A stretch of DNA of 64,000 bases from an uncultured Chloroflexia bacterium (GCA_963746845.1 CAVVCZ010000001.1:224001-288000); one strand, 5' to 3'. Shown: positions 15,355 through 30,818, counted from the stretch's first letter. A program made the numbers and translations. The notes: generated by a model not told the origin, from the sequence alone.

Positions 15355-15386
15355 GGCGCTTCTCGATTCCTGACCGGTCCGGTCAC
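15355..15386 (-). promoter_or_regulatory. Putative AraC activator site upstream of VOC-uvrA2 (second copy at 12090-12121)
   Basis: GTGACCGGACCGGTCAGGAATCGAGAAGCGCC, 25/32 identical to the araC 3' end; 17 nt upstream of TAGAGT -10. Confidence 0.5.
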
Positions 15387-15412
15387 GTGCGTGTCAACCG
15401 GCGACGTCCGTG

Positions 15413-16891
15413 TCAGCCGGCGATCGCCTTCGTCGCCTGGTCGATGATCCCGAGGATCAGCTGCGGCACGAGACCGAGGGCGATCGTCAGCGCGGTCGCG
15501 ACCGCCAGGCCGCCCCACAGCAGCCGGCCGTGCCGGAGGGCCGGCGCGTCGCTGACCGGGTCGCGCATCCACATGTAGACGACGACACGGAGGTAGTAGA
15601 ACGCGGCGGCCGCGGCGTTCACGACGAGCAGCACCGCGAGGAACGCGACCCAGCCACCGGCCTGCACCGCGGGGATGATGATCAGCACCTTGCCGAAGAA
15701 CCCGGCGGTCGGCGGGATGCCGAGCAGTGACAGCAGGAACAGGGTCATCAGAATCGCGAGCGTCGGCTCGCGCCGGATGAGCCCGGCGAACGTGGTGAGC
15801 GACGACGTCACGCCCGCCCGCTTCTGGAGGGCGGCGATGACCGCGAAGGCCCCGAGGTTCATGAACGAGTACGCCGCGGCGTAGAACAGCAGCCCGGACA
15901 GCCCGTCCGCCTGGCCGCCGGCGTACGCCGCCAGCCCCACCAGCATGTACCCCGTGTGCGCGATCGAGCTGTACGCCAGCATCCGCTTCACGTTGTCCTG
16001 CGTGAGCGCGACGAGGTTGCCGAGCGTCATCGTCGCGGCCGCCAGGACCACGACGACCGGCAGCCAGTCGGCCTTCATCGACCCGAGCGCCTCGACGAAC
16101 AGCCGCAGGATCAGCGCGAACGCGCCGACCTTCGGGCCGACCGACAGGTAGCCGGTGACGGGCGTCGGCGATCCCTGGTACGCGTCCGGCGTCCAGTAGT
16201 GGAACGGGACCGCGGCGATCTTGAACGCGACACCCGTGGTCAGGAACGCGAAGCCCATCGCGAGGCCCGGGCTGAACGGCATGGCCCCGCTCGCGACCTT
16301 CGTCAGCGTGTCGGCGACGGCGTCGATGCGGGTGGAGCCGGTCAGGCCCCACACGAACGCCAGGCCGAACAGGAAGATCGCCGAGCTGAACGACCCGAGG
16401 AGGAAGTACTTGATCGCGCCCTCGGTCGAGTACGAGTCGGTCTTGTGGTAGCCCGCGAGGAGATAGCCCGGCAGGACCATGAGCTCGAGTCCGAGGAACA
16501 GCAGCAGCAGGTCCGCGGATGCCGAGATGAGCATCGCCCCGGTCATCGCGAACACGAGGACGGTCGCGAACTCACCGACGGGCAGCCCGCGTGGCGCCAG
16601 GTAGTCCGGGGCGAAGACGATCGTCATCGCGATGATCGAGATGAACAGCAGGTCCAGGAACGTCGTCAGGGCGTCGAGCCGGTAGGCGCCGCCGAACCCG
16701 AGCATCGGCTGGGTCAGCGTCTGGCTGCCGACGGCGACCGTGATCGCGGCCGTGATCGCGAGGCCGAGCAGCGCGACGCCGATGACCGCGTACGTCCGCC
16801 CGGGCAGGATCAGGTCGACGAGCAGGATCGCCAGCGCGGTCGCGATCGCGGCCACGAGCGGGGCGATGACGGCTCCCTCGGTCAGGATCAC
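15413..16891 (-). CDS. nuoN: NADH-quinone oxidoreductase subunit N
   Basis: EGAIKYFLLGS, FKIAAVPFHYWTPDAYQG, KRMLAYSSIAH. Confidence 0.95.
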   Translation of the reverse strand: MILTEGAVIAPLVAAIATALAILLVDLILPGRTYAVIGVALLGLAITAAITVAVGSQTLTQPMLGFGGAYRLDALTTFLDLLFISIIAMTIVFAPDYLAPRGLPVGEFATVLVFAMTGAMLISASADLLLLFLGLELMVLPGYLLAGYHKTDSYSTEGAIKYFLLGSFSSAIFLFGLAFVWGLTGSTRIDAVADTLTKVASGAMPFSPGLAMGFAFLTTGVAFKIAAVPFHYWTPDAYQGSPTPVTGYLSVGPKVGAFALILRLFVEALGSMKADWLPVVVVLAAATMTLGNLVALTQDNVKRMLAYSSIAHTGYMLVGLAAYAGGQADGLSGLLFYAAAYSFMNLGAFAVIAALQKRAGVTSSLTTFAGLIRREPTLAILMTLFLLSLLGIPPTAGFFGKVLIIIPAVQAGGWVAFLAVLLVVNAAAAAFYYLRVVVYMWMRDPVSDAPALRHGRLLWGGLAVATALTIALGLVPQLILGIIDQATKAIAG

Positions 16892-18561
16892 GAGGCCGCC
16901 TCCACCGACGCGCCGCCGTGGCCCGGCTCCGCGACCACCTCGGAGCCCGTGCCCGGGCCGCCACCGGACAGGTCGACCCGGGCGACCCAGATCGTCCGGG
17001 CGACGACGTACAGGATCGGCAGGGCGATCGCGATGAGCGCCGTCTGCGGGGCGATCGCGATCGGGCCCTCGCGGCTCACGTCGGCCAGCGTGTTCGTCAC
17101 CGCGCCGCGGACGACGTCGAGGACGAGGCCCGGGAACAGCCCGAAGACCACGGTCAGGGCGGCCAGCGGCGCGAGCGTCAGGATCTCGGTCGGGGTCATG
17201 TCGGTCAGGTGGTGCCCGAGGCCCTTCAGGAACTCGGACAGCTCGCCGAAGACCAGCCGCTGGTACATCCAGAGCAGGTAGGCACCCGCGAGGATCATGC
17301 AGACGGTCGCGATCGCGGCGACCCACGGCGAGTACTGGAACGCCCCGACGAGGACGAGGAACTCCCCGACGAAGCCGGCCAGCCCGGGCAGCCCGCCCGA
17401 GGCGAAGACGAAGAACCCGAGCGCCACGGCGTAGACCGGCACGACGCCGGCGAGCCCGCCCATCTTCGCGATCGTCCGGTCATGGGTCCGCTCGTAGATC
17501 ACGCCGACGAGCAGGAACAGGGCGCCCGTGATCAACCCGTGGTTGACCATCTGGAGGATCGCGCCGTCCATCCCCTGGACGTTGAACACGAAGATCCCGA
17601 GCGTCACGAAGCCCATGTGCGACACGGAGCTGTACGCGACGAGCTTCTTCAGGTCCGGCTGGACGAGCGCCACGACCGCGCCGTAGATGATCGCGATCAG
17701 GCTCAGGACGATGATCGCCGGGGCGAACGTGTGGGCCGCGCCCGGGAACAGCGGCAGGGCGAACCGGATCATCCCGTACGCCCCGAGCTTCAGCATCACC
17801 GCGGCCAGGATCACCGAGCCCGCCGTCGGGGCCTGGACGTGGGCATCCGGCAGCCACGTGTGGAACGGCCACATCGGGACCTTGATCGCGAACGCGAGGA
17901 AGAAGGCGAGGAACGCGAAGAGCTGGAGGGTCGGGTCGAACGAGAACGTCCGGAGGTTCTCGAAGTTGAACGCGCCGGCCCACGAGCCGCCGTTGGCCGC
18001 CTGATAGGCATAGGCGGTCGCGAGGATCGCGACCAGCATCAGGAGCGAGCCGACGAGCGTGTACAGGACGAACTTGATCGTCGCGTAGATCCGGTTCACG
18101 CCGCCCCAGATCCCGATGATCAGGTACATCGGGACGAGGACGATCTCCCAGAAGATGTAGAAGAGGAACGTGTCGAGGGCGACGAACACCCCGATCATCC
18201 CGACCTCGAGGATCAGGAACGAGATCATGTATTCCTTGATCCGCGTCTGGATCGGCGCGAACGAGGCGAGGATGCTGATCCACGACAGGGTCGTCGTCAG
18301 GACCACGAGCACGAGCGACAGCCCGTCCACGCCCATGTGGTAGTCGATCCCGAACACCGGGATCCACGGCACGAGCTCCTCGTACTGGAATGGCCGCGGC
18401 GAGTCCGGCGAGAAGCCGACCAGGAGCAGGAGCGAGACCAGCCAGGCGATCAGGCTGGCGGCGAGCGCCAGCGGCCGCGCGTACCGCCCGGGGGCGATCG
18501 CGACGACGAGCGCGCCGATGAGCGGCGTGAAGGTCACGATCGTCAGGATCGGGAGGTCCAT
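16888..18561 (-). CDS. nuoM: NADH-quinone oxidoreductase subunit M
   Basis: FYIFWE, IKVPMWPFHTWLPDAH, KKLVAYSSVSHMG. Confidence 0.95.
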   Translation of the reverse strand: MDLPILTIVTFTPLIGALVVAIAPGRYARPLALAASLIAWLVSLLLLVGFSPDSPRPFQYEELVPWIPVFGIDYHMGVDGLSLVLVVLTTTLSWISILASFAPIQTRIKEYMISFLILEVGMIGVFVALDTFLFYIFWEIVLVPMYLIIGIWGGVNRIYATIKFVLYTLVGSLLMLVAILATAYAYQAANGGSWAGAFNFENLRTFSFDPTLQLFAFLAFFLAFAIKVPMWPFHTWLPDAHVQAPTAGSVILAAVMLKLGAYGMIRFALPLFPGAAHTFAPAIIVLSLIAIIYGAVVALVQPDLKKLVAYSSVSHMGFVTLGIFVFNVQGMDGAILQMVNHGLITGALFLLVGVIYERTHDRTIAKMGGLAGVVPVYAVALGFFVFASGGLPGLAGFVGEFLVLVGAFQYSPWVAAIATVCMILAGAYLLWMYQRLVFGELSEFLKGLGHHLTDMTPTEILTLAPLAALTVVFGLFPGLVLDVVRGAVTNTLADVSREGPIAIAPQTALIAIALPILYVVARTIWVARVDLSGGGPGTGSEVVAEPGHGGASVEAAS

Positions 18562-18571
18562 CGCCGCCGCC

Positions 18572-20566
18572 CTACCTGGCCGCCAGCACGAGGAACGACC
18601 CGGCCATCACGATCAGGCCGACGGCGATCCCGAGGGCGTAGTTCTGGACGCGTCCGGTCTGGACGCGGCGGAGGCCCTTGCCGGCGTCGACGGTCGTCGT
18701 CGCCACGTCGTTGACCGTGTCGTCGATCACCCGCCGATCGAACCACCAGAAGAAGGCCGCGACCTTTCCGCCGATGACCATGAACAGCAGGTGGTTGAGG
18801 TCGTCGAACCACCACTTGTTCAGCGACGCGCGGTAGAGGAACGGGACGCGGGCGGTCAGGGCCCGGACGCGCTCGGGGTTCGGGCGCCAGCGCAGGCCGC
18901 TGATCTCCACCCCGAACAGCCGCCAGGCGAGGATCATGCCGACGACCGCGATCCCGACGCCGGACACGAGCGCGAACCCGTCGATGCCGAAGATCACGAA
19001 GGTCTGCTCGGTGTGGCCGAGGAGCTCCTCGCCCTGGGCGAAGACAGGCTCGAGCCATGTCGCGAGGAGGCCTTTGGTGTCGGGCGGGAAGCCGAGCAGC
19101 GGCCCGAGCGGCGGACCCGGGAACGAGAGGATCATCCCGAGGAAGATCGACGGGATCGCCAGCAGCCAGAGCGGCACGGTCATGACCGGCGGCGACTCGT
19201 GGATGTGCGGCTCGACCGCCGGATCGACGTGGCTGGGGCCCCAGAACGTCATCCCGATGAGCCGGAACATATAGAAGGCCGTCATCAGCGCGACGACGAT
19301 CCCGATGAACCAGACCCACTGGAAGCCGAGCTTGAACGTCTCGTCGAGGATCTCGTCCTTGCTGAAGAAGCCGGCGAGCGGCGGGATGCCCGCGATCGCG
19401 ATCGCGCCGATCAGCATCGTCCGGTAGGTCTGCGGGATCTTCGTCCGCAGCCCGCCCATCCGGCGCATGTCCTGCTCCTCGTGCACGGAGTGGATGACCG
19501 AGCCCGAGCCGAGGAACAGCAGGCCCTTGAAGAAGCCGTGCGTCATCAGGTGGAAGATCGCCGCGGTGAACGCGCCGACGCCGAGGGCCGCGAACATGTA
19601 GCCCAGCTGGCTGAGTGTCGAATACGCGAGGACGCGCTTGATGTCCGTCTGGGTCATCGCGATCGTCGCAGCGAGGAGCGCGGTGAAGATGCCGATCCCC
19701 GCGACGATGACCATCGCGTCGGGGGCGCTCGCGAAGATCGGGTTCGTCCGGGCGACGAGGTAGACGCCGGCGTTGACCATCGTCGCGGCATGGATCAGCG
19801 CCGACACCGGGGTCGGGCCCTCCATCGCGTCCGGCAGCCAGACGTGGAGCGGGAACTGGGCGCTCTTGCCGACGGCGCCGGCGAACACGAGGAGGGCGAC
19901 GATCCAGATCGGGATCGCGAGGCTCGCCCCTTCGGCCGTGAGGCCTGCGATCGAGTCGCGGATGTTCAGGGTCCCGGTGTTCACGAAGATTGCCATGATC
20001 CCGAGCGCGAACCCGACGTCGCCGACGCGGTTGACGAGGAACGCCTTCTTCGCCGCGAGCGCGGCGCTCTGCTTCTGCTTCCAGAACCCGATCAGCAGGT
20101 AGCTCGAGAGGCCGACCAGCTCCCACGCGACGAAGACGACGAGGAAGTTGTCCGCGAGGACCAGCAGGAGCATCGAGACCATGAACAGGTTCAGGTAGGC
20201 GAAGAACCGCCAGTAGCCGGGGTCATGGCTCATGTAGCCGATCGAGTAGATGTGGACGAGCAGGCCGATCGTCAGGACGACGATCAGGAGGCAGGCCGTC
20301 AGGTTGTCGACGAAGAGCCCGGCCGTGACCTGGAAGCTCGCCGATGCGATCCATGTGTAGAGCGTCACGCCGTAGCCGTGCTCGCCGAACGGCTCGTTGC
20401 CGGACAGGGCGTTGAAGACGACGAACATCCCGATCGCCCACGCGATCCCCACCGCGCCGACCGGGACGAGATGGGCCCGCTTGCCGAGCCGTCGCCCGGC
20501 GACCGCGGTGAACAGGAAGCCGAGCAGTGGCAGGGCGATGATCGCCGGGATCAGGACGTCGAACAT
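18572..20566 (-). CDS. nuoL: NADH-quinone oxidoreductase subunit L
   Basis: NRVGD, GKSAQFPLHVWLPDAMEGPTPVSALIHAATMV, QTGRVQNY. Confidence 0.97.
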   Translation of the reverse strand: MFDVLIPAIIALPLLGFLFTAVAGRRLGKRAHLVPVGAVGIAWAIGMFVVFNALSGNEPFGEHGYGVTLYTWIASASFQVTAGLFVDNLTACLLIVVLTIGLLVHIYSIGYMSHDPGYWRFFAYLNLFMVSMLLLVLADNFLVVFVAWELVGLSSYLLIGFWKQKQSAALAAKKAFLVNRVGDVGFALGIMAIFVNTGTLNIRDSIAGLTAEGASLAIPIWIVALLVFAGAVGKSAQFPLHVWLPDAMEGPTPVSALIHAATMVNAGVYLVARTNPIFASAPDAMVIVAGIGIFTALLAATIAMTQTDIKRVLAYSTLSQLGYMFAALGVGAFTAAIFHLMTHGFFKGLLFLGSGSVIHSVHEEQDMRRMGGLRTKIPQTYRTMLIGAIAIAGIPPLAGFFSKDEILDETFKLGFQWVWFIGIVVALMTAFYMFRLIGMTFWGPSHVDPAVEPHIHESPPVMTVPLWLLAIPSIFLGMILSFPGPPLGPLLGFPPDTKGLLATWLEPVFAQGEELLGHTEQTFVIFGIDGFALVSGVGIAVVGMILAWRLFGVEISGLRWRPNPERVRALTARVPFLYRASLNKWWFDDLNHLLFMVIGGKVAAFFWWFDRRVIDDTVNDVATTTVDAGKGLRRVQTGRVQNYALGIAVGLIVMAGSFLVLAAR

Positions 20567-20576
20567 CAGGTCGCCA

Positions 20577-20966
20577 TCACTGGCGCATCGCGTCGTACTC
20601 GTCGACGAGCGGAGTCTTCTTGTTCCGATAGATCGCGATGACGATCGCGAGGCCGACCGTCGCCTCCCCGGCGGCGACGGCCATGACGAGGAGCGCGATC
20701 ACCGACGCACCGGCGCCGAGCGCCGGGATGAACGCGCCGAACGCCACGATCGACAGGTTGACCGCGTTCAGCATCAGCTCGATCGACATCAGCATGCTGA
20801 TCGCGTTGCGCCGGGCCAGGAAGCCGAACATCCCGATCGCGAACAGCAGGCCGGCGAGGATCAGGTAGGCGTCGAGCGAGCGCGAGCCACCGGCGGCCAG
20901 GCCGATCGTCCCCAGCCCGCCGATCAGGACCACCGCCAGGACCGTCCCGATGATGACCTTGATCAT
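20577..20966 (-). CDS. nuoK: NADH-quinone oxidoreductase subunit K (extra N-terminal hydrophobic segment)
   Basis: [30 protein letters not shown]. Confidence 0.92.
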
Positions 20967-21511
20967 TCGGAGTCGTCCGAGGACGCGGTCCGGTCGCGCT
21001 TCGCGAGGAAGATCCCGCCGATCACCGCCGCGAGCAGGAGCACGCCGACGATCTCGAACGGGAGCACCCAGTCGGAGAACAGCTGCCGGGCGAGATCCGG
21101 CGTCTGGGTCGTGCCCGGCCGGGCCGAGCCGCCCCAGTCGGTCGCGGCCACGGTGAGCACGAGGATGACGACGAGGATCACCGCGGCGACGGCCGCCGGC
21201 ACCGCCTGCGTCTGGAAGACGAGCCGGTTCGGGGCGGACTTCGTCTGGGTGAGCATGATCGCGAACAGGACGAGGACGCTGATCGCGCCGATGTAGACGA
21301 GGACCTGGGCGGCGGCGACGAGCGGGGCGCCGAGCATGACGTAGATCCCGGCGAGGGCCGCGAAGCAGACCATCATCGCGAGGCCGCATCGGATGATGTC
21401 GCGCAGGGTCACGACGAGCAGCCCCGACAGGAGCATCGTCCCCGCGAGGAGCACGAACAGGACGTCGTCCCAGGGGATGCCGAGGATCGGGATCGTGTCG
21501 GGGATCGCCAC
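20963..21511 (-). CDS. nuoJ: NADH-quinone oxidoreductase subunit J
   Basis: [39 protein letters not shown]. Confidence 0.92.
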
Positions 21512-21520
21512 GGGCGGTCC

Positions 21521-24181
21521 TCAGCCGTGCCCGTGGCCGGCGTGCTCACCGCCGTCCGCGCCATGGCCGGCCGTCAGGGCCGGGACGTGGCCGTTGCCGT
21601 TGCCGTCGTGCCCGTTGCCGGACCCGTCGCCGAGCTCCTTCGCGACGTACGCCGCGACCGATGCCGGGAGCATCGGCAGCAGCCGGGTCGGGGCGACGGG
21701 TCGGCCTGCGGCGGCCGCCCGCTCGGCCCAGTCGCGCTCGCGCCGGATGTAGGTCATCTCGGTCTCCTGGTCGACCGTCGCGAGGGCGATCAGGTCGACC
21801 ATCGGATCGACGCGCGAGGTGTGCGAGAGCTCGAAGTCGCCGCCGTCGCGCAGGGCGTCGTACGGGCACGCGTCGACGCAGATCCCGCACAGGATGCAGC
21901 GGCTCTCGTCGACGTCGTACGTCTGGAGGACGCGCGGCTTCGGCATCAGGGCGCCGGTCGGGCAGGTCTCGGCGCATCGGCCGCACGACACGCACGGGGT
22001 GTCGTTGAGGCTCATGTCGAGCGGCGTCGTGACGAGGGTGTCGAAGCCGATCCGCATGAAGTCGTAGCAGGCCGCCCCGACGACCTCGGAGCAGACCTGC
22101 GCGCACCGGCCGCAGTCGATGCAGCGCGAGGGCTCGCGCAGGATGAACGCGTGCGAGTCGTCCCGGATGTAGTCATGGTTGATGCCCGTGAACCGGTTCT
22201 CGGTCACGCTCCGGTAGCCCGCTCCCTGGTGGTTCTGCGGCTCGAGCGTCTGGAGCGTCGTCCCGTACTCGATCCCGAGACGGCGGAGGTCGCAGAACCC
22301 GATCGCCTCGCAGGTGCACTGGAGACAGCGCGTCGACTCCGCGACGACCTCCTCGCGGGTGTACGGGATCTCGTACTCGATGTAGCTGTCGTTGCGGACG
22401 CTCGCGGGCATCGCCTTCAGGCGGTAGCGGGGCTCCTTCTGCTCGCTCGTGAACGGGACGATCGAGAGGAACTCGGGCTGCGGCTCGGCGAGCTGCTGGC
22501 GGGTCTTGATCTCCGACAGGTCGAGGCCCTTCAGGAAGGCGTCGACCGCGTAGGCGGACCGGCGGCCCTCGGCGACCGCCTGGACGACGGTCGCGGCGCC
22601 GACACGGACGTCCCCGCTCCCGAAGACGCCCGGGCGGTCGGTGAGGAAGGTGACGGCGTCGGCCTTGAGACGCCTGTTCCGGGTCGGCTGCGGGCCTTCG
22701 GAGCCCGGCCCGATCCAGGTGAGCTCCGGGCCCTGGCCGATCGCGAGGAGGACCCGGTCGCACGGGATGACGAACTCGGTCCCCGGGGCCGGCTCCGGCC
22801 GGCGCCGCCCGGACGCGTCCGGCTCGCCCGGCCGGTTCCGGATGAACTCGACCCCGGTGACCTTGCCCTTGGCGTCGGTGATGACCCGCGTCGGGCCCGC
22901 CTGGAAGATCGCCTGGACGCCTTCCTCGATCGCCTCGTGGACCTCGTTCGCCGCCGGCATGTCCTTCATGTCGCGGCGGTAGACGAGGGTCACCTCGGCC
23001 GCGCCCTGGCGGATCGAGGTGCGGCTGCAGTCCATCGAGGTGAACCCGCCGCCGATGACGACGACGCGCTTGCCGGCGTGGCCCGGGTAGGGCAGGCCGA
23101 GGGTCGCCGTTCGGAGGTACTCGAGGCCGTCGAGGACCTCGGCCGCGTCCTCGCCCGGCACGCCGAGCTTGTTCGTGTCGTAGCAGCCGATCGCGATCAG
23201 CACGGCGTCGAAGCCCTGGTTCTGGAGGTCGTCCAGCCCGAAGTCCTTGCCGAGCTCCGCGTTGCAGACCATCTTCCCGCCGAGCCGGGTCACGGATTCG
23301 TACTCGGCCTCGAGGACCTCGACCTTCGGCAGGCGGTACTGCGGGATCCCGTAGCGGAGCATCCCGCCGGGCGCGGCGTCGCGCTCGAAGACGGTGACGT
23401 CGTGGCCCGCGATCAGCAGGTAGTACGCGGCGGCCATGCCGGCCGGCCCGGAGCCGATGACCGCGGCCTTCCGGCCACTCTTCGGCTGGACCTCGAACGG
23501 GATCGGCGGGTCCTCGCCGTCGTCCAGCATCATCTTGATGACCTGGTCGCCGGCGTAGCGATGGGAGTCGCGGATCGCGATCGCCTCGTCGACCTCGTCG
23601 CGCCGGCAGTGCTCCTCGCACGGCGCCGGGCAGACCCGGCCGAGGACGCTCGGGAACGGGATCGTCCGCTTGAAGATCCGGGTGGACTCGCGGAAGTTCG
23701 CCTCGGCGTTCGCCTTCAGGAAGCCCGGGATGTCGATGTGGCTCGGGCACTTGTTCTGGCAGGGCGGCAGGCAGTAGGCGTTGTGGTCCGAGAAGATCAG
23801 CTCGAGGTTCGTCCGGCGGAGACGGCGGACCTCCTCGGTCTGGGTCTTGACGACCATGTCCGGCTCGCACGTCCGCGAGCACGAGATCGGCGGGTGCTCC
23901 TCGCCCGCGACCTCGACGACGCACATCCGGCACGCGCCGAAGCCGGGCAGCTTCGGCTCGTAGCAGAGGGTCGGGATCTCGATCCCGTTGTCGCGGCAGA
24001 CCTCGAGGATCGTCTGCCCCTCGAAGCCCTCGACGACCCGGCCGTCGACCTCGATCCGGATGCGCGGCGACGACTGCGGCCGTTGCGGCGACTGGGTCGT
24101 GATCAGCCGCTCGGCGAGGCTGTCGTCGAACGGCTCGAGCGTGTTCGTTTCGACGTAGGGGCGCGGCAGCAGGTCGGTCAT
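21521..24181 (-). CDS. Fusion: NuoG-like Fe-S domain + GltD-like FAD/NAD(P)H domain + 2[4Fe-4S] + C-terminal half of NuoI
   Basis: IPTLC..GACRMC..SC; HNAYC; PPCQNKCP; [12 protein letters not shown]; IGSGPAG; [13 protein letters not shown]; RCLQCTC; CIDCGRC; [12 protein letters not shown]; [28 protein letters not shown]. Confidence 0.88.
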
Positions 24182-24188
24182 CGTCTCG

Positions 24189-25556
24189 TCACTGAACGGC
24201 TGCGCTGGCGGCGACCGCGATCGGCCGGCAGACGCCGGCCGGGCACGAGCTCCGCAGGATGTGCTCGTCGAGCTCGGACTGGAAGTATCGCATCCCACTC
24301 GCGAACGGAAGGGTCGCCAGCCGCTCGTGGGCGCACAGTCCGGACCCGACGATGTCGTTCGACAGGTCGGCCAGGAGATACAGGTCGGTGGGCTTCGGGA
24401 CGCCGGTCGCGATCCGGTCGCCGATCTCGCTGATCCGGCGCAACCCGATCCGGCAGGGGATCGTCTTGCCGCACGCCTCGTCGGCGCAGTAGCGGGTCAG
24501 GAGCCGGGCGAGATCCACGATGCAGGCCCGCCGGTCCGCCGCGACGATCGAGCCGGAGCCGATGTGGGCCCCGACCGCGCGGAGCGCGTCGAACTCGTAC
24601 GGCGTGTCCGCGAACTCGGGCGGCAGGATCCCGCCGGACGGCCCACCGACGAGGATGGCCTTGAGATGCTTCTCGGCGTCCTTGCCGGTGAGGGCGAGGA
24701 TCTCGCGGAGCGGCGTCCCGATCGGAACCTCGGCGACGCCGGCACCGTCCGGCGTCCGGACCGACACGAGGATCGTGCCCGGGCTGCCCTTCGCGCCGAT
24801 CGCCGCGAAGGCCTCGGCACCGTTGACGAGGATCCACGGCACGGCGGCGAGGGTCTGGACGTTCTGGACGACCGTCGGCCGGCCGAACAGGCCCTTCGTC
24901 GCGGGCTGCGGCGGCCGCTGCTCGGGCTGGCCACGCTTGCCCTCGAGGGCCTTCAGGAGGACGGTCTCCTCGCCCAGCATGTAGGCGCCCTGGACCGGCC
25001 GGACGGTGAGGTCCATGACGTGCCCGGAGCCGAGGACGTCGTCGCCCGCGAGGGCCGCGTCCACGAGCCGCTCGATCGCCGTCTCGAGCGTCCGGATCGC
25101 ATCGACGGCCTCCGCCCGGACCGCGATGATCACCTCGTTCGCGCCGATCGCCAGGGCCGCGATCAGCGCCCCCTCGAGCACCGCGTAGGGGTTCCGCTCC
25201 AGCAGCGCGCGGTCCGTCCGGGACGACGGATCCGCGCCATAGCCGTTCGCCACCACGACCTTGCGCATCGCCGAGCGGTCGCCGCTGCCGGTGCCGGGCG
25301 CGACCACGTCCGGAGCCGGCGCGTTCGCCGCGACGCGCCATTTCTCGGCGGTCGGGAAGCCCGCTCCGCCGCGGCCGCGGAGTCCGGAGGCGGCGATCGT
25401 CGCGATCGTTCCGGCCGAGCCCAGGTCGTGCATCGCCTTCGCGAGTCCCTCGAAGGCGCCCGCCTCGCGGGCGGCGTCGAGATCGAGGGGATCCCGGTTG
25501 CCGCGCGGCAGGAGGATCGCCGGCCAGGACCGCGCTGTGCGGAGGATCGTCGTCAT
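24189..25556 (-). CDS. NuoF-like flavoprotein with degenerate motifs
   Basis: SGLRGRGGAGFPT, GEETVLLKALEGKRGQP, GGPSGG, CGKTIPCRIG..LC. Confidence 0.85.
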   Translation of the reverse strand: MTTILRTARSWPAILLPRGNRDPLDLDAAREAGAFEGLAKAMHDLGSAGTIATIAASGLRGRGGAGFPTAEKWRVAANAPAPDVVAPGTGSGDRSAMRKVVVANGYGADPSSRTDRALLERNPYAVLEGALIAALAIGANEVIIAVRAEAVDAIRTLETAIERLVDAALAGDDVLGSGHVMDLTVRPVQGAYMLGEETVLLKALEGKRGQPEQRPPQPATKGLFGRPTVVQNVQTLAAVPWILVNGAEAFAAIGAKGSPGTILVSVRTPDGAGVAEVPIGTPLREILALTGKDAEKHLKAILVGGPSGGILPPEFADTPYEFDALRAVGAHIGSGSIVAADRRACIVDLARLLTRYCADEACGKTIPCRIGLRRISEIGDRIATGVPKPTDLYLLADLSNDIVGSGLCAHERLATLPFASGMRYFQSELDEHILRSSCPAGVCRPIAVAASAAVQ

Positions 25557-25577
25557 CGCGGGATCGTCGTCATCGCG
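25544..25577. repeat. Perfect 17-bp tandem duplication spanning the NuoF-like start codon
   Basis: GGATCGTCGTCATCGCG at 25544-25560 and 25561-25577. Confidence 0.95.
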
Positions 25578-25578
25578 T

Positions 25579-26241
25579 TCAGGCCCGCGCCTGGCCGGCG
25601 AGGGAGGCATCGAGGCCCGCGAGGTACGTGCTCTCGCGGCCGGCGCGTGCGGCGGCGGTCGCGGCTGCGAGGGGCTCGGCGGCCGGCGGCTCGAACCGCA
25701 GGTGGCGGTAGTAGGTCGCCGTCCCGTAGATCATCGCGTACCAGGCACCGGTCCTCTGGCTGATCAGCTTCAGCGCCGCGACGGGCAGGTGGCCGTACTC
25801 CGCCTGGGTCGCGTCGAGGATCTCGAGCATCCGCTTGGGGTCGAAGTCGTAGCGCTCGAGGATCGCCTCGAGGGCCTCGGGGTGGATCGGGTCGAAGTGC
25901 GCGTAGGCCTGGTCCGGCACAGGCCGGCCGGAGCGCCGGAGCGCCAATTCGTCGCGCCGCTCGCCGTAGGTCTCCGGGGCGCCCCAGTGGATGTGGTACC
26001 GGCCCTTCGTGTCGACACCGCCCATGTCGATGCACTCGATCGGGCAGGCCTGGGCGCACTGGAAGCACGTCTCGCACTTCAGCGTGCCGTACTCGTCGTA
26101 GAGCAGCTGGAGCCGGCCGCGGAACTTCGGCGGGACGTCGAGCCGCACCTCGGGGTACTTGATCGTCGCCTTCGGCTCGAAGAACTTCTTCAGCGTCAGG
26201 CCCATGCCCTTGACGATCCCGAGACCGGGCAGCGGGATCAT
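25579..26241 (-). CDS. Fusion: N-terminal half of NuoI + N-terminal helical domain of NuoE
   Basis: KGMGLTLKKFF..TIKYPE..FRGR..CETCFQCAQACP (one motif only), then LEILDATQAEYGHLP..IYGTATYY; no NuoE [2Fe-2S] cysteines. Confidence 0.85.
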   Translation of the reverse strand: MIPLPGLGIVKGMGLTLKKFFEPKATIKYPEVRLDVPPKFRGRLQLLYDEYGTLKCETCFQCAQACPIECIDMGGVDTKGRYHIHWGAPETYGERRDELALRRSGRPVPDQAYAHFDPIHPEALEAILERYDFDPKRMLEILDATQAEYGHLPVAALKLISQRTGAWYAMIYGTATYYRHLRFEPPAAEPLAAATAAARAGRESTYLAGLDASLAGQARA

Positions 26242-27587
26242 CGCGGCAGCACGACGAGGATCGCGGCGGCCGTCACGAACAGGTTCAGCAGCGAGGCCGG
26301 CAGCAGCCACTTCCAGGCGAAGTTCATCAGCTGGTCGATCCGGACGCGGGGCAGCGTGCCGCGCATCCACACGAAAATGAACACGAACGTGTAGGCCTTG
26401 AGCAGGAACCAGAGCAGCCCGGCCACCCAGTCCCAGCTGATGAACACGGCGCCGCCGATGACGACGATCACGAGCAGGTTGAACAGGATGAAGCCGATGA
26501 TCAGCGCCTGCCACCACGGCAGCGAGCTCCGCCCGACGTAGAACGGCGCCGAGAGCGCGAGGATCAGGAGCGGCGGGACGATCAGGAGGGCGAACAGCAG
26601 CCCCAGCCCCATCGAGCCCGGGTCGAGGTTCAGGTGGATCGCCCAGGCCTCGGGCCAGGCGATCGGGGCGTTCCAGCCACCGAAGAACAGCGTGACGATC
26701 AGGCCCGAGACGACGAACACGTTCACGTACTCGGCGAAGAAGAAGAACCCGAACCGCATGCCGGAGTACTCGGTCGCGAAGCCCGCGACGATCTCGCTGT
26801 CCGCCTCGGTCAGGTCGAACGGCGTCCGGTTCGCCTCCGCCGTCGCGGCGATGAAGAAGATCAGCGCGCCGAGCGGCTGCTGGAACACGTACCAGTTCGT
26901 GAACCAGCCGGCCTGGTTGAGCGTGATCTGGTTGAGGCTCATCGTCCCGGCCAGGAGCAGCAGGCCGACGACCGACAGGGTCAGCGGGATCTCGTAGCTG
27001 ATCACCTGGGCTGCCGACCGCAGCCCGCCGAGCAGCGAGTACTTGTTGAACGACGACCAGCCGCCCATCAGCAAGCCGACCACCGTCAGGCCGCTGACGG
27101 CGAACAGGTAGAGCAGGCCGATGTTGAAGTCCTGCCCGAACAGGCCCGGGGCGAACGGCAGGACGAGCAGCGCCATCACGGCGGACATGTAGACGACGAC
27201 CGGGGCGAGGGTGAACACGATCCGGTCGGAGCCGGTCGGGCTGAAGTCCTCCTTCATCAGGACCTTGAGCCCGTGGACCACCGACAGGAGCGACCCGTAC
27301 GGGCCCACCCGGTCCGGCCCGATCCGGAGGTTCATCAGGGCGATGACCTTCATCTCCATGTAGATGATCAGGAACGCCGACGGGACGCTCATCAGGAGGA
27401 CCGCGGTCGCCGCGACGATGAAGCGGACGAGCCACAGGTTCGCGGCGAGGAAGTCGACGATCGGCTTGCCGAACAGGACGATGACGAGGGCAAGGCCCGC
27501 CGTGAGCAGGAGCAGGATCGGGACGATCGTGAAGATCAGCTTCCCGGCCAGCGTCAGGCGGCCCCAGGAGCGGGCCATCGTGGTCAC
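26238..27587 (-). CDS. nuoH: NADH-quinone oxidoreductase subunit H
   Basis: RIGPDRVGP, GGLRSAAQVISYE, AEANRTPFDLTEADSEIVAGFATEYSG, RGTLPRVRIDQ; GGAG before GTG 27587. Confidence 0.95.
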   Translation of the reverse strand: MTTMARSWGRLTLAGKLIFTIVPILLLLTAGLALVIVLFGKPIVDFLAANLWLVRFIVAATAVLLMSVPSAFLIIYMEMKVIALMNLRIGPDRVGPYGSLLSVVHGLKVLMKEDFSPTGSDRIVFTLAPVVVYMSAVMALLVLPFAPGLFGQDFNIGLLYLFAVSGLTVVGLLMGGWSSFNKYSLLGGLRSAAQVISYEIPLTLSVVGLLLLAGTMSLNQITLNQAGWFTNWYVFQQPLGALIFFIAATAEANRTPFDLTEADSEIVAGFATEYSGMRFGFFFFAEYVNVFVVSGLIVTLFFGGWNAPIAWPEAWAIHLNLDPGSMGLGLLFALLIVPPLLILALSAPFYVGRSSLPWWQALIIGFILFNLLVIVVIGGAVFISWDWVAGLLWFLLKAYTFVFIFVWMRGTLPRVRIDQLMNFAWKWLLPASLLNLFVTAAAILVVLPR

Positions 27588-27639
27588 GCCGCGACTCCCC
27601 GCGCGTGTGACCGCGCCCACTCCGCGGGCCTGCCCAAGC

Positions 27640-27821
27640 CCGGAAATTGTCGAATGTCACCCACGGCGTCCTTGTCCATCGACACCGTGGAGATTCGGCG
27701 CGCTCCGGCGCATGCGGGGTCCGCCGTTAGCCTCAGGCGGCTACTTGTCGACCGGTCCGGGAGGTCTACGCGCGTGCCAGGCTGGATAGCGACGCTCACG
27801 CCGGCATTCGACAAGGTCCGG
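27640..27821. repeat. Structured element with terminal inverted repeats in the nuoD-nuoH spacer (MITE/REP-like)
   Basis: CCGGA-aa-TTGTCGAATG ... CATTCGACAA-gg-TCCGG; internal hairpins at 27661-27690 and 27721-27740. Confidence 0.55.
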
Positions 27822-27852: not shown

Positions 27853-27936
27853 TCACTTGTCCACGCCGCCGTCCTCGGGCCGATGGCGTCGCGGAGCTCC
27901 GCCTCGGGCCTCGGAGGACACATGCCGGCGCGTCAT
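27853..27936 (-). CDS. Putative 27-aa peptide coupled to nuoD and ending in the same GGVDK
   Basis: ATG overlaps nuoD stop (ATGA); MTRRHVSSEARGGAPRRHRPEDGGVDK*. Confidence 0.3.
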   Translation of the reverse strand: MTRRHVSSEARGGAPRRHRPEDGGVDK

Positions 27937-29174
27937 TTGTCGACCCCGCCCATGATCGGATCCAACGAGGCCATGACCGCCATCGCGTCGGCGATCAGGT
28001 GGCCCGGCATCAGCACGCCGACCGACTGGAGGTGGACGAACGATGGGTCGTGGATCCGCATCCGGAACGGTTGGTCCGTGCCGTCGCTGATCACGTACGC
28101 CGCGTACTGCCCGCGCGGCCCCTCGACCGCGGCATAGGCCCGGCCCGGTCGCGGGCGGAGCAGCCGCGGGAGCTTGGCGGTCACCGGCCCGTCCGGCATC
28201 TGGTGGAGGCACTGGTCGATGATCCGGAGGCTCTGTTTGATCTCGTCCATCCGGACCAGGTAGCGGGCGAGGCAGTCGCCCTCGTCGCGGGTCGGGATGT
28301 CGAAGTCGAGCTCCGGGAAGATGCTGTACGGATGGGCGCGCCGGAAGTCGAGCGGGACGCCCGTCGCCCGCAGGTTCGGACCGGTCACGGCCATGCGGAA
28401 CGCCGTTTCCTGGTCCAGCGTGCCGAGGCCGCGCATCCGCCGGACGAAGATCTCGTTCGCGTTCAGCAGGCCCAGGTTGTTCTCGATCTGGGTCGTCGCC
28501 CGGCTCATCCAGTCGCCGAGCCGGCTCATGAACTCGTGGTTCAGGTCGCCGTTGACGCCGCCGATCCGGATGTAGTTGTAGAGCAGCCGCTGGCCGGTCA
28601 GGGCCGCGAGCATCTCGGCGATCTCGTCGCGCTCGATGAAGCTCCACAGGATCGGGGTCAGGCCGCCGAGATCGAGCGCCATCCAGCCCATGAACAGCGA
28701 GTGCGACAGGATCCGGTTCAGCTCGGTCGCGAGGACCCGGATGTACTCGGCGCGGCGCGGCACCTCGACGTCCAGCAGCTTCTCGAACGCGAGGACGCCC
28801 GGCCACTCGCAGAACAGCGAGCTGATGTACTCGAGCGGGTCGAGGTAGGCGATCGAGTGGTGGTAGTCGGCGTTCTCGCAGAGCTTCTCGACGCCGCGAT
28901 GGAGGTAGCCGAGGACCGGATCCAGGTCGACGACCTTCTCGCCCTCGAGCTTGAGGACGATCCGGAGCACGCCGTGGGTCGACGGGTGCTGCGGCCCCAT
29001 GTTGATGAACATCTCGCCGTCGCCGAGGGTGTAGAACTCCGACTCGCGCTCGGTCCGGGGCGGGTACGGCGGGACCGGCTCGAAGACGCCCGCCGCCTCG
29101 TCGAGCTGGACGCGCGGGTCGTCCGACGGCACCTCGTGGTGGGGGTGGCCGTGGGGCGCCTTCGCTGCTGTCAC
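27933..29174 (-). CDS. nuoD: NADH-quinone oxidoreductase subunit D
   Basis: INMGPQHPSTHGVLR, GYLHRGVEK, ELNRILSH, EGPRG, DPIMGGVDK. Confidence 0.95.
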   Translation of the reverse strand: MTAAKAPHGHPHHEVPSDDPRVQLDEAAGVFEPVPPYPPRTERESEFYTLGDGEMFINMGPQHPSTHGVLRIVLKLEGEKVVDLDPVLGYLHRGVEKLCENADYHHSIAYLDPLEYISSLFCEWPGVLAFEKLLDVEVPRRAEYIRVLATELNRILSHSLFMGWMALDLGGLTPILWSFIERDEIAEMLAALTGQRLLYNYIRIGGVNGDLNHEFMSRLGDWMSRATTQIENNLGLLNANEIFVRRMRGLGTLDQETAFRMAVTGPNLRATGVPLDFRRAHPYSIFPELDFDIPTRDEGDCLARYLVRMDEIKQSLRIIDQCLHQMPDGPVTAKLPRLLRPRPGRAYAAVEGPRGQYAAYVISDGTDQPFRMRIHDPSFVHLQSVGVLMPGHLIADAMAVMASLDPIMGGVDK

Positions 29175-29719
29175 GCACGCACCTTCCGGACCATGTCGGC
29201 CGGGCGGGCGTTGCGCGGCGCATGCGACTGCTCCATGTGCCGGACGCCGGCCCCTGGCGAGCGTGCCGCGTCGTCCGCGAGGTAGAAGTCCTTGCGGAGC
29301 GGAAACGCCTGGTAGTCGGGCGGCATGTAGATCCGGCGGAGGTCGCGGTTGCCCTCGAACGTGATCCCGAACATGTCGTAGGCCTCGCGCTCCATCCACT
29401 CGGCGCCCTGCCAGAGGAAGGTCACCGACGGGACGCGGGGATCGTCGCGGGACAGCCCGTCGGCGATGACGCGAAGCCAGTCCGGGCTCGACTCACCCCA
29501 CAGGTGATAGACCACCTGCATCGAATGGCCGGTGTCGACGCCGGCGAGGTCGGCCAGGAGGCGGAACCCGAAGGCGGGCTCGTCGTGGAGCGCGCGAACG
29601 ACGTCCGGCACGTCGCCCGGCCCGATCCGGATCTCCGTCTCGTCGTGACGCTGTGCGATGGGCCCGGTCAGGCGATCGCCGAAACGTGCCTGCAGCCGTC
29701 GCTTGAGGGCGGCGTCCAT
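29171..29719 (-). CDS. nuoC: NADH-quinone oxidoreductase subunit C
   Basis: WMEREAYDMFGITFEGNRDLRRIYMP..PLRKDF. Confidence 0.93.
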   Translation of the reverse strand: MDAALKRRLQARFGDRLTGPIAQRHDETEIRIGPGDVPDVVRALHDEPAFGFRLLADLAGVDTGHSMQVVYHLWGESSPDWLRVIADGLSRDDPRVPSVTFLWQGAEWMEREAYDMFGITFEGNRDLRRIYMPPDYQAFPLRKDFYLADDAARSPGAGVRHMEQSHAPRNARPADMVRKVRA

Positions 29720-30462
29720 CAGACGTCCGTCGGCACGGTGGGTCCGATCGCCCGATCCGGCCAGTGCCCGCGGCGGTCCTTGACGAGCTGCTGGAGCTTC
29801 ATCATCCCGTAGATCAGCCCCTCGGGACGCGGCGGGCAACCGGGGACGTAGACGTCGACCGGCATGACGCGGTCGATGCCTTCGATCGTCGCGTAGCTCC
29901 GCTTGTACCGGCCGCCGGAGCACGTGCAGTCGCCCATCGCGACGCACCACTTCGGCTCCGGCATCTGCTCCCAGAGGCGCACGAGCGGCCCGGCCATCTT
30001 CGTCGTCAGGGTGCCCGCGACGATCAGCACGTCTGCCTGGCGCGGCGAGGCGCGGAACGGGAACATGCCCCAGCGGTCCATGTCGTTTCGCGACGTGGCC
30101 GACGACATCATCTCCATCGCGCAGCAGGCCAGACCCGACAGGAGCGGCCACAGGCTGTTCGCCCGGATCAGGTCGAGGACGTAGTCGGCCTTCGTCGGGA
30201 TGACCTCGAGCGGACCGGACCAGCGGGCGTCGTCGCGCCGGCCGAGCCCGGACTCCTCGAACTCCCGGAGGTGGGTGACGTCCGGCTCGAGGCCGGCCTG
30301 GTAGGCGTTCGGGTCGACCGACTTCCAGAGGGTGTTCGAGACGACGATCGGCTCGGTCACGGCCGTCCGGCTGACGACCAGGGCCGAGGCCTCGTCGGTC
30401 GCCGCCGCCCGGTCGTCCGGCTCGACCGCCGGGATCGCCCCCGCCTCCTCGTTCAGCGCCAT
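29719..30462 (-). CDS. nuoB: NADH-quinone oxidoreductase subunit B
   Basis: [36 protein letters not shown]. Confidence 0.95.
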
Positions 30463-30818
30463 TCGAGGACCCCCTTCCGCCAGGCGTAGGCAAGCCCGAG
30501 CAGGAGGATGCCGACGAACACGAGCATGCTCAGGAACAGGGCGGCCGGGTCGACCGCCGGGTCGCGGAAGACGATCGCCCACAGGAAGATGAAGACGACC
30601 TCGATGTCGAAGGCGACGAACAGCAGGGCGTAGATGTAGAAGGAGAGGCCGAACCTGCCGTGGGTGTCGCCGTACGTGTCGATGCCCGACTCGTACGGGA
30701 GGCCCTTGTGCGCGTCGCCGCGGTTGCGGTGGGAGACCAGCCACGCGGCGCCGATCGTCAGGAACACGAACGACACGCCGGCGAACAGGAACCCCACGAC
30801 GTACCAGATCTGGGTCAC
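30453..30818 (-). CDS. nuoA: NADH-quinone oxidoreductase subunit A
   Basis: [37 protein letters not shown]. Confidence 0.93.

Follow-up and report, generated by a model that had tools for sequence, protein, structure and literature searches.

The 64,000-nucleotide stretch of DNA analysed here (the window), from an uncultured Chloroflexia bacterium, carries a complex I operon in which NuoI is divided between two polypeptides. In this soil lineage of the Chloroflexota, each half of NuoI is fused to a subunit of a putative NADPH/NADH-oxidising module related to Nfn/Stn. The operon probably encodes the organism's only respiratory complex I, a conserved variant with eleven core subunits whose NuoI is made from two polypeptides. 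Its most likely function is that of a proton-pumping NAD(P)H:quinone oxidoreductase with clusters N6a and N6b bridging the two chains. A literature search for a split NuoI fused to Nfn/Stn-like subunits found no description; the original prediction likewise knew of no described complex I with this layout. Its claims that NuoI is split and that no intact nuoI is present stand, and the cysteines are conserved among homologues; its canonical E-F-G module, in-situ insertion and cluster bridging are revised below.

The core genes nuoA, B, C, D, H, I, J, K, L, M and N lie in one operon, with nuoI as two halves (Table 1). Three genes on the minus strand, P0001, P0002 and P0003, were found between nuoH and nuoJ. 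The nuoH stop codon overlaps the ATG of P0001, and P0003 ends 9 bases before the downstream nuoJ; the original prediction had placed the second NuoI half at the end of the NuoG/GltD protein, directly before nuoJ. Because the three genes use three different reading frames, their products are separate polypeptides.

Table 1. Features of the complex I operon, with positions counted from the first letter of the window (~, approximate).
Feature	Position	Strand	Match or basis
nuoD-nuoC-nuoB-nuoA block (starts approximate)	27933-30815	-	
nuoA	30453 to ~30815	-	
nuoB	29719 to ~30231	-	
nuoC	29171 to ~29722	-	
nuoD	27933 to ~29170	-	
nuoH, 460 aa	26238-27620	-	NCBIfam NuoH NF004741, E 3.1e-95
P0001, 220 aa, NuoI N-half + NuoE/StnA-like helical domain	25579-26241	-	
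NuoI N-terminal half, P0001 residues 1-78	26008-26241	-	TIGR01971, E 3.3e-14
NuoE-like N-terminal helical domain, P0001 residues 125-188	25678-25869	-	PF01257, E 2.7e-9
P0002, 455 aa, NuoF/NfnB-like FMN subunit	24189-25556	-	
P0003, 886 aa, NfnA/StnC-like subunit with NuoI C-half at end	21521-24181	-	
2Fe-2S domain (N1b-like), P0003 residues 40-115	23837-24064	-	PF13510, E 4.6e-19
GltD-type FAD/NAD(P)H domain, two 4Fe-4S clusters, P0003 residues 139-550	22532-23767	-	TIGR01318, E 6.2e-92
Two-cluster ferredoxin domain, NuoG/HydA type, P0003 residues 680-745	21947-22144	-	PF22117
NuoI C-terminal half, P0003 residues 750-794	21800-21934	-	TIGR01971, E 7.6e-13
C-terminal tail of P0003	21524-21799	-	alignment
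nuoJ	20963-21511	-	NF005168, E 3e-36
nuoK-nuoL-nuoM-nuoN block	15413-20882	-	
nuoK	20577-20882	-	
nuoL	18572-20566	-	
nuoM	16888-18561	-	
nuoN	15413 to ~16879	-	

As the proposal of a split nuoI had predicted, alignment to the NuoI model TIGR01971 gave complementary halves with no overlap. Residues 12-78 of P0001 cover positions 1-66 of the 121 in the model (52.5 bits), residues 750-794 of P0003 cover positions 71-115 (48.1 bits), and neither reaches the curated cut-off of 113.05 bits. The first motif, CETCFQCAQACP, was located at 26041-26076 (C56-x2-C59-x2-C62-x3-C66-P67) and the second at 21863-21898 (C762-x2-C765-x2-C768-x3-C772-P773), the latter within the region of about 21790-21920 proposed for it. 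TYKY/NuoI residues 23-87 were the best solved match of the N-terminal half, and the single-stretch solved matches of the C-terminal half were to the second motif and tail of TYKY/NuoI, e.g. 9f5x_G residues 162-209. The two CxxCxxCxxxCP motifs, the NuoI-type N terminus and the tail are present only jointly in P0001 and P0003. An intact nuoI, already reported missing in the original prediction, was absent from the genome that the window comes from, an assembly of 12 contigs at 92% completeness: a NuoI model search gave no match at the cut-off (113 bits), and its top two matches were the two halves. Canonical NuoI/TYKY/Nqo9 (Thermus thermophilus 2fug chain 9; plant 7ar7 chain I) has a similar N-terminal segment, both cysteine-motif signatures, the C-terminal tail and the position between nuoH and nuoJ. 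However, it is one polypeptide, whereas here there are two, about 4 kb and one whole gene apart, each fused to another subunit.

The P0001 fusion was matched in 39 of 41 relatives. Across the class, 192 of 201 genomes gave a match (125 of the 127 that are at least 90% complete). Of the 81 near-complete genomes of the class, just 3 had a full-length NuoI as well, and most of the class has the split-NuoI complex as its sole complex I. All eight NuoI cysteines were invariant in 22-row alignments of P0001 and P0003 homologues, as was P67 beside C56, C59, C62 and C66 of P0001. An assembly artefact, a frameshift or a decaying pseudogene is contradicted by the data and very improbable. All genomes compared, including that of the window, are metagenome-assembled, and local frame breaks occur in two relatives, one in the G gene of L031 and one where the IE gene of L023 ends. 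However, the three-gene order and architecture were identical in 18 of 18 class loci fetched, all independently assembled, which excludes misassembly. The trio has the same architecture in 4 independently assembled loci outside the class, its cysteine ligands are invariant, and public data contain 2926 related proteins of similar length.

Among solved structures, P0001, P0002 and P0003 each have their best match in a different subunit of the Bfu-family transhydrogenases NfnABC and StnABC. The helical domain of P0001, recognised as NuoE-like in the original prediction, has NfnC 9bov_C and StnA 8oh5_A as solved relatives. Its match to the NuoE family PF01257 is limited to positions 2-65 of 145, so the 2Fe-2S part of NuoE is missing; a Pfam domain search of P0001 did not find the thioredoxin-like 2Fe-2S domain of NuoE and StnA/BfuC. 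Some relatives keep this domain in degenerate form, with incomplete cysteine ligands. P0002 contains only FMN and N3 domains (PF01512, E 1.8e-36; PF10589, E 3.7e-18), with the FMN loop GLRGRGGAGFPT plus GEET. Its best solved relatives, NfnB 9bov_B and StnB 8oh5_B, were aligned over residues 111-526 of 584 only, and neither Pfam nor the alignment found in P0002 the 2Fe-2S domain at the N terminus and the ferredoxin domain at the C terminus that carry clusters B2-B5 of BfuB (PMC9304861). Against the NuoF equivalog TIGR01959 it scored 313 bits, below the cut-off of 558.65. The N3 motif has Thr where the second Cys is expected; among 23 aligned sequences, 15 have Thr, Ser or Ala at this position (families f1, f2 and f4) and the other 8 have Cys, and NADH entry may therefore be weakened in the window's lineage.

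P0003 matched PRK12814 over residues 41-700 (E 8.4e-162), and its solved relatives are 9bov_A (E 1.6e-161) and 8oh5_C (E 3.9e-139). It has the 2Fe-2S domain of a BfuA/NfnA-type subunit (C73, C84, C87 and C101 invariant) and the corresponding GltD NADPH/FAD domain, which was also matched by PF14691 and PF07992 (Y401, R402 and R403 invariant). In the two-cluster ferredoxin domain (motifs C687..C697 and C730..C740-P) all eight cysteines are invariant. The molybdopterin-like C-terminal domain of NuoG was not found in P0003 by Pfam, and TIGR01973 was matched only at positions 1-125 of 606. The P0003 tail is variable, with conservation limited to members of the window's order, and finishes in a His/Gly/Asn-rich stretch. 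A canonical NuoEFG N-module was rejected, as the NuoG molybdopterin-like domain, the NuoE 2Fe-2S part, a NuoF score above cut-off and the second of the four N3 Cys are all missing. The earlier claim of an E-F-G module between the two motifs thus holds for a three-gene module but not for canonical NuoE-F-G.

The order of NuoE-like, NuoF-like and 2Fe-2S/GltD/NuoG-like proteins is shared with the three-gene modules NfnABC of Caldicellulosiruptor saccharolyticus (9bov/9bp5; 9bov is named NfnABC after the search listing) and StnABC of Sporomusa ovata (8oh5/8oh9). Those enzymes are soluble, whereas here fusion attaches the module to a membrane complex. The NuoI C-half stands where StnC has its FdhF-like C-terminal domain. 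StnB has a 2Fe-2S domain at its N terminus and a two-cluster domain at its C terminus, and StnA has a 2Fe-2S domain; all three are missing here. A part of PMC10482914 describes StnC as a GltD and NuoG fusion in which electrons pass from NADPH/FAD along the clusters. A Bfu-like trio placed centrally in a nuo operon also characterises the 14-subunit Nuo-Bfu complexes predicted by Schut et al. 2022 (PMC9304861), but there the trio occupies the normal E-F-G position and retains a complete, bifurcating BfuB. NuoI occurs 0 times in the main text of that paper, and no split is mentioned there. The predicted membrane-bound Nuo-Bfu enzymes, the bifurcating nature of NfnABC/StnABC as closest solved relatives of all three proteins and the retention of both flavin sites would suit a Bfu-type bifurcating or confurcating unit in which a single reaction couples NADH and NADPH (or ferredoxin) with quinone. 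Such a unit appears improbable from the domain content: clusters B2-B5 are missing from non-bifurcating homologues (PMC9304861, in part), P0002 spans only the FMN and N3 portion of NfnB/StnB, and P0001 lacks the 2Fe-2S domain, whose ligands are incomplete in the relatives that keep it.

In a 2[4Fe-4S] ferredoxin fold, each cluster takes three cysteines from one motif and the fourth from the other. Past its GltD domain P0003 has three CxxCxxCxxxC motifs and P0001 has one; all 16 cysteines are invariant, and the four motifs together make two complete two-cluster domains. The 22-row alignment revealed no further invariant cysteine in P0001, so its lone motif could not complete two clusters alone. 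If the usual fold is formed, N6a and N6b would each be held by three cysteines of one chain and one of the other. Complex prediction of the two halves, which returns a score with no contact list, gave an ipSAE of 0.42 compared with 0.00 for the best of 3 controls, within the tool's 'weak support' band. Of 80 solved complexes 58 attain this mark, and of 110 mismatched pairs 2 do. The runs had at least 75% of their contacts in common, and the partner pLDDT was at least 59. The AlphaFold2 model of P0003 had pLDDT <50 at residues 566-818 and 826-886 and is thus uninformative on the Fe-S region. For the earlier claim that the two chains hold the clusters jointly, fold and motif arithmetic speak in favor, and the complex score adds weakly.

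The NuoI fold might also not be rebuilt: the C-terminal motif of P0003 would then be a third polyferredoxin repeat, N6a and N6b would be unshared, and P0001 would hold a single cluster at its motif or no cluster at all. The C-terminal 142 residues of P0003 score best against polyferredoxins (FwdF, E 1.4e-16, in several short stretches), and the weak complex score points the same way. However, the polyferredoxin scores are sums of repeated 20-30-residue matches, whereas the matches in one continuous stretch fall on the second motif and tail of NuoI (query residues 9-56 of 142), and P0003 covers its own part of TIGR01971. The odd motif count of P0003, the lone motif of P0001 and the lack of other invariant cysteines there leave no other partner, and another NuoI is lacking in the window's genome and in all but 3 of the 81 near-complete class genomes. 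We regard an unshared arrangement as unlikely.

Joint ligation of the clusters, donor specificity and direction of electron flow are features that we infer for the assembled complex. P0001 would contribute the membrane-facing N terminus and first cysteine motif of NuoI at one end and, at the other, the NuoE/StnA-type helical domain, which binds the NuoF-type subunit in related enzymes. P0003 would contribute the second motif and tail of NuoI, placed after its 2Fe-2S, GltD FAD/NADPH and two-cluster ferredoxin domains. The shared clusters would lock the Nfn/Stn-derived dehydrogenase module onto the quinone module, with the NuoI halves substituting for the absent NuoG docking domain. Electrons would enter at the GltD FAD from NADPH, by homology, and probably at the NuoF-like FMN from NADH, and would pass through the Fe-S chain and the split N6a/N6b to N2 in NuoB and on to menaquinone, driving proton pumping. 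NADPH specificity of the GltD site is suggested by homology and by Y401, R402 and R403, a YRR motif that we take to be an NADPH signature. The quinone module looks normal in translation: NuoB has the tandem cysteines that we take to be the N2 motif of the quinone type, and NuoD has no cysteine pairs of what is presumably the NiFe ligand motif. Escherichia coli complex I has reportedly been engineered to oxidise NADPH by a point mutation in NuoF; the idea of an energy-converting NADPH:quinone oxidoreductase is shared, but here a separate, natural GltD site would oxidise NADPH.

Complex I, like Nfn/Stn, can in principle work in both directions, and the complex here might run mainly in reverse, the proton-motive force driving electrons from menaquinol to the GltD site, where NADP+ would be reduced to NADPH. 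Reversibility of Stn is covered in PMC10482914, and conservation within the module is highest in the GltD domain (identity across the alignment 44-96% for P0003 versus 24-94% for P0001). Mainly reverse operation nevertheless has a low probability, because most of the class has no other complex I, the operon is a standard respiratory one in these lineages, and the genome already has a PntB transhydrogenase gene. With PntB and other NuoF-like genes in the genome, the pyridine nucleotide pools are connected by more than this complex. The region is represented among contigs from the RNA libraries of relatives; such libraries can contain DNA.

Without the insert, the window reads A-B-C-D-H-I-J-K-L-M-N, the gene order of 11-subunit complex I-like enzymes without an N-module (cyanobacterial NDH-1; NUO11, described in part of PMC4758237), which share the eleven core genes. 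Those enzymes have an intact NuoI and a separate donor protein, whereas here the dehydrogenase module is covalently built into NuoI. In mbx-like operons (Degli Esposti 2015, PMC4758237, in part) NuoI is substituted by a gltD-related NAD(P)H flavoprotein and the enzyme reduces NAD(P)+; a GltD-type protein at the NuoI position is common to both, but the operon here keeps both NuoI motifs, with quinone-type NuoB and NuoD. The proposed in-situ insertion into the loop of nuoI fits the window's gene order. The cassette has both nuoH and nuoJ as neighbours in 13 of 18 class loci but not in four loci of family f3. In one class family and three other Chloroflexota families, the fused trio follows nuoB (or nuoB-nuoD), distant from nuoH/nuoJ; in view of these cassettes, in-situ insertion is one candidate order of events. 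The partner clusters of the detached cassettes, A-C-H-J-K-L-M-N in f3 (without B, D and I) and A-C-D-H outside the class (without B and I), lack exactly those genes that the cassette supplies.

The window carries one nuo operon, on its minus strand, in which nuoA, B, C, D and H are followed by three unusual genes and these by nuoJ, K, L, M and N. The three genes encode P0001, the NuoF-like P0002 and P0003, each in a different reading frame. They are tightly packed: the start of P0001 overlaps the stop of nuoH, and 9 bases separate P0003 from nuoJ. As the original prediction stated, NuoI is split between two fusion proteins. P0001 and the end of P0003 match successive stretches of the NuoI model TIGR01971, the former followed by a NuoE-like part and the latter preceded by 2Fe-2S, GltD-type and two-cluster ferredoxin domains. 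Because the NuoE-like match stops in the first half of the family model, this part of P0001 is without the 2Fe-2S part. P0001 corresponds to the first motif and N-terminus of solved TYKY/NuoI chains, and the end of P0003 to their second motif and tail. In the search with the P0003 end, polyferredoxins score above NuoI, but solely as sums of many short repeats. The predicted absence of an intact nuoI also held in the window's genome (3.56 Mb, 12 contigs, 92% complete), where nothing reached the TIGR01971 cut-off and the two best NuoI matches were the P0001 and P0003 halves.

Coordinates of genes, domains and side features (window positions unless a protein, locus or genome is named; L numbers are loci fetched from relatives or from the window's genome, G000)
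Feature	Position	Strand	Length	Match or content
P0001	25579-26241	minus	220 aa	
NuoI N-terminal half	P0001 residues 12-78			TIGR01971 positions 1-66 of 121, E 3.3e-14; includes CETCFQCAQACP
NuoE-like part	P0001 residues 125-188			PF01257 (NuoE family), first 65 of 145 positions
P0002	24189-25556	minus	455 aa	
N3 motif region	24261-24515 (P0002 residues 348-432)			CGKTIPC
P0003	21521-24181	minus	886 aa	
2Fe-2S domain	P0003 residues 40-115			
GltD-type flavoprotein domain	P0003 residues 139-550			
NuoG/HydA-type two-cluster ferredoxin domain	P0003 residues 680-745			PF22117
NuoI C-terminal half	P0003 residues 750-794			TIGR01971 positions 71-115, E 7.6e-13; includes second Cys motif
P0003 tail	21524-21640			His/Gly/Asn-rich low complexity, with ...HAGHGHG
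NuoH	26238-27620		460 aa	
Spurious very long ORFs beside real genes	25579-27660; 21527-24433			
Frame break in P0003 homologue	L031 2998-5323			homologue in two frames
Frame break in P0001 homologue	L023 2995-3555			homologue diverges at its end
Gene between P0003 homologue and nuoJ	L043 (G049:C2; family f4) 14963-16348	plus	461 aa	C-terminal SDR/NAD-epimerase-type Rossmann domain; only weak NCBIfam hits
Fused NuoE-NuoF	L048 (G000:C6:464000-478000) 4914-6752	plus	612 aa	thioredoxin-like 2Fe-2S, FMN, SLBB and N3 domains
FdhA/NuoG-N-like ORF	L048 6761-7771	plus	337 aa	2Fe-2S, NuoG-type ferredoxin, molybdopterin-Fe4S4
Third NuoF-like gene	L049 (G000:C6:82000-92000) 4724-6181	minus	485 aa	FMN and N3 domains
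PntB gene	G000:C5:403015-404394			membrane transhydrogenase beta
Soil contig pieces spanning the NuoI-N to NuoE linker (examples)	25834-26037; 25903-26109			

The split NuoI is a conserved feature of the class, not an accident. The P0001 fusion was matched in 39 of 41 close relatives, in 192/201 sampled class genomes and in 125 of the 127 that are at least 90% complete; the class matches listed extend over the NuoI part as well as the NuoE part and occur in all five families. By the public names of close homologues, all of them metagenome-assembled, the organism belongs to Chloroflexota, Candidatus Limnocylindrales/Limnocylindria. The three genes keep the same order and orientation in all 18 fetched class loci. 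In alignments of 22 rows for each protein, all motif cysteines of both NuoI halves are invariant: C56, C59, C62 and C66 of P0001, together with P67 and with no further invariant Cys, and every Cys of the three C-terminal motifs of P0003, including C762, C765, C768 and C772 (with P773). One locus was omitted from each alignment, L023 from that of P0001, where the end of the gene reads as frameshifted, and L031 from that of P0003, where the gene lies in two frames; both breaks are probably assembly errors of those metagenome-assembled genomes. NuoI-model matches were found in 81/81 class genomes at least 90% complete, and a full-length NuoI over the cut-off in only three of them (G110, G100 and G061), the matches in the others being confined to the halves or to small ferredoxin-like proteins of no relation. 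Genomes flagged as unpublished contribute to the tallies 192/201 (G131, G122, G191, G157, G102, G184, G126 and G146), 127/301 (G363, G388, G475 and G436) and 81/81 (G122); loci were fetched only from other genomes, and none of the claims depends on the flagged ones by themselves.

Public proteins of similar length matching P0001 number 2926 and are annotated just as 'ferredoxin' or 'NAD(P)H-dependent oxidoreductase subunit E'; pipelines would therefore report nuoI as missing. Another 57 P0001-like proteins are longer (386-2000 aa, E <= 1e-10), and 56 of these are single-sequence clusters. Besides the NuoE-like domain, their Pfam content includes NuoH (PF00146) or NuoF (PF01512), and none of the 57 restores an intact NuoI. 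We read them as effects of gene calling or of indels where stop and start overlap, or as occasional fusions of neighbours.

Several minor features of the region were recorded. The G+C content of the window is 67-76%, and spurious long ORFs are expected since it is around 70%: upstream of P0001 its frame has no stop for 693 codons, extending across nuoH in a different frame, and P0003 has an ORF of 968 codons on the opposite strand. Automatic gene calling could place starts wrongly around such ORFs. An Rfam scan of the window gave 0 matches. NuoH is unusually long; against relatives from families f4 and f3 of the class it aligns in two blocks, approximately residues 66-323 and 399-456, as if NuoH of the window's family had gained some 75 residues by insertion and been extended at the N-terminus. 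The His/Gly/Asn-rich tail of P0003 varies in length among relatives of the same family and is absent from f2, in the window's own order, and from f3 and f4.

The region was also compared with soil sequencing runs. Contigs of relatives in these runs are short and contain a fraction of 0.04-0.16 of the sampled words. Three RNA-library runs and one DNA run each have contigs matching 29-30 of 30 bins at 85% likeness, and some pieces span the linker between the NuoI N-terminal half and the NuoE-like part. This coverage shows neither transcription nor coverage of this genome's own junctions. The 'joints' among the soil contigs derive from other organisms and were disregarded.

Few enzymes have been studied as well as complex I, whose 14 core subunits, NuoI (TYKY) among them, are universally conserved. 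We know of no described natural form in which the two-cluster ferredoxin fold of NuoI is divided between two polypeptides. A literature search covering main texts and few subscription journals returned no description of a split NuoI, of a complex I carrying a GltD/Nfn-type module, or of one in which an Nfn/Stn-type module is built into NuoI. Nearest in print, in the available portions of the two papers, are predicted Nuo-Bfu complexes (PMC9304861) and mbx-like operons in which NuoI is replaced by a gltD-related flavoprotein (PMC4758237).

The inserted genes had been taken for a NuoE-F-G module, an assignment that did not survive structural comparison. The module is not a canonical N-module, and the best solved relatives of all three proteins are subunits of the Bfu-family transhydrogenases NfnABC and StnABC. 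P0003 is closest to NfnA of C. saccharolyticus NfnABC (9bov_A, E 1.6e-161; 9bov was identified as NfnABC from a search listing), StnC (8oh5_C, E 3.9e-139) and T. sibiricus NfnA (9n5u_A). For P0002, NfnB (9bov_B), StnB (8oh5_B) and HydB all rank ahead of any complex I NuoF, and for the NuoE-like part of P0001 the best are NfnC (9bov_C) and StnA (8oh5_A). According to the available text of PMC10482914, GltD and NuoG are fused in StnC, through which electrons from NADPH and FAD travel by way of a chain of clusters and reach the FMN of StnB; the FdhF-like C-terminal domain of StnC carries a two-cluster side branch that the authors call an evolutionary remnant. P0003 aligns to residues 3-702 of the 1172 of StnC; the FdhF-like domain is absent, and the NuoI C-terminal half occupies its place. 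Of the 584 residues of StnB/NfnB, P0002 covers 111-526 only, and it has just the FMN and N3 domains. Non-bifurcating homologues are described as without exactly those extra clusters in the available text of Schut et al. (PMC9304861). The missing StnB-type extra clusters, together with the missing 2Fe-2S domain of P0001, argue from sequence comparison that the module has lost bifurcation. In relatives that retain this 2Fe-2S domain, the Cys ligands are incomplete.

Both flavin sites look intact by motif: P0002 has GLRGRGGAGFPT and GEET, and P0003 has Rossmann motifs and an invariant YRR, which we take to be flavin-site signatures. Of 23 aligned NuoF-like sequences, 15, from f1, f2 and f4 and with the window included, have Thr, Ser or Ala in place of the second Cys of the N3 motif (CGxCxPC); the other 8, from f3 and from outside the class, retain this Cys. 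A C-terminal CPxxxC pair of P0002 is conserved in most homologues, the exceptions being three relatives' loci (L022, L026 and L027).

Past its GltD domain, P0003 carries three ferredoxin-type motifs, against a single one in P0001. The PF22117 domain accounts for two of the three; the third lies ~20 residues past it and has the signature of the second NuoI motif, and the lone P0001 motif is preceded by the NuoI N-terminus. In the simplest reading, these last two motifs would rebuild a NuoI fold. In 2[4Fe-4S] ferredoxins, three of the Cys ligands of a cluster come from one motif and the last from its partner motif; clusters N6a and N6b would be held jointly by the two chains, with Cys66 and Cys772 as the predicted cross-chain ligands. 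The rebuilt fold would attach P0003 and also P0001, which by homology binds the NuoF-like subunit as well, to the quinone module and make up for the missing docking domain of NuoG. NuoB carries the tandem-Cys motif of cluster N2 and NuoD is without the hydrogenase cysteines, and the acceptor is therefore a quinone.

A complex prediction was run with P0001 residues 1-120, P0003 residues 655-830 and four 4Fe-4S clusters. It scored 0.42, rated as weak support, against 0.00 for the best of 3 controls and returned no contacts (contact agreement among runs at least 75%, partner pLDDT at least 59); the score mark is reached by 58/80 solved complexes and 2/110 mismatches. An AlphaFold2 model of full-length P0003 from the 22-row alignment had a mean pLDDT of 56 and is uninformative for the Fe-S region, since values fall below 50 at residues 566-818 and 826-886. 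Because the complex prediction is weak and the monomer model uninformative, joint ligation is what we infer from the motifs. We put forward tentatively, at somewhat short of even chances, that Limnocylindria and some other Chloroflexota respire with a proton-pumping NADPH- and NADH-:menaquinone oxidoreductase in which N6a and N6b are truly inter-subunit and the two-chain fold acts as a covalent-like staple between the quinone module and a domesticated Nfn/Stn module that has ceased to bifurcate. If true, a soluble redox module was grafted onto complex I via the splitting of a core subunit, and a natural complex I is fed by a GltD-type NADPH site, with a bearing on how the cellular NADPH/NADH balance is coupled to respiration. 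The annotation of energy metabolism would then change for the whole class, which is abundant in soil and freshwater, a matter for complex I and electron-transfer specialists.

The layout had been explained by insertion of the module into the loop between the two nuoI motifs. This fits the order in the window: without the insert the operon reads A-B-C-D-H-I-J-K-L-M-N (11 genes), the insert has the order stnA-B-C, and both would follow from one insertion of an operon into the nuoI loop. However, arrangements in f3 and outside the class differ, and either the in-operon order of the window or the nuoB-linked cassette may be ancestral. In all four f3 loci, nuoB and nuoD stand with the three fusion-module genes as nuoB-nuoD-IE-F-G; one f3 genome, G087, has nuoA-C-H-J-K-L-M-N at a separate place, without B, D or I, and this genome and G055 have one nuoH and one nuoD each. 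Outside the class, a four-gene nuoB-IE-F-G cassette was found in families f10, f29 and f47 (9 rows in 8/301 sampled phylum genomes), flanked by unrelated genes at L039, the single such locus with flanks scanned. Three outside-class genomes have a nuoA-C-D-H cluster without B and I and a second nuoJ elsewhere; a canonical complex I, in which an intact NuoI adjoins nuoH, is encoded separately in these genomes. From these varied arrangements, the split-NuoI enzyme is a distinct complex I lineage in Chloroflexota, and it is the only complex I kept by most Limnocylindria. Some f4 loci have an extra gene between the P0003 homologue and nuoJ; the product of the one in L043 may be an accessory subunit, with a possible resemblance to NDUFA9.

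Other redox genes of the window's genome were inspected. The adjacent L048 genes may encode a truncated NAD-formate dehydrogenase-like diaphorase; the second stops before any molybdopterin domain and is followed by a chloramphenicol-phosphotransferase-like gene. The third NuoF-like gene lies near an ApbE flavin-transferase gene. A canonical N-module encoded elsewhere and serving the complex was considered and rejected: the L048 and L049 genes lie away from any nuo genes, and no NuoI comes with them. The PntB gene gives the genome another NADH/NADPH link besides the complex.
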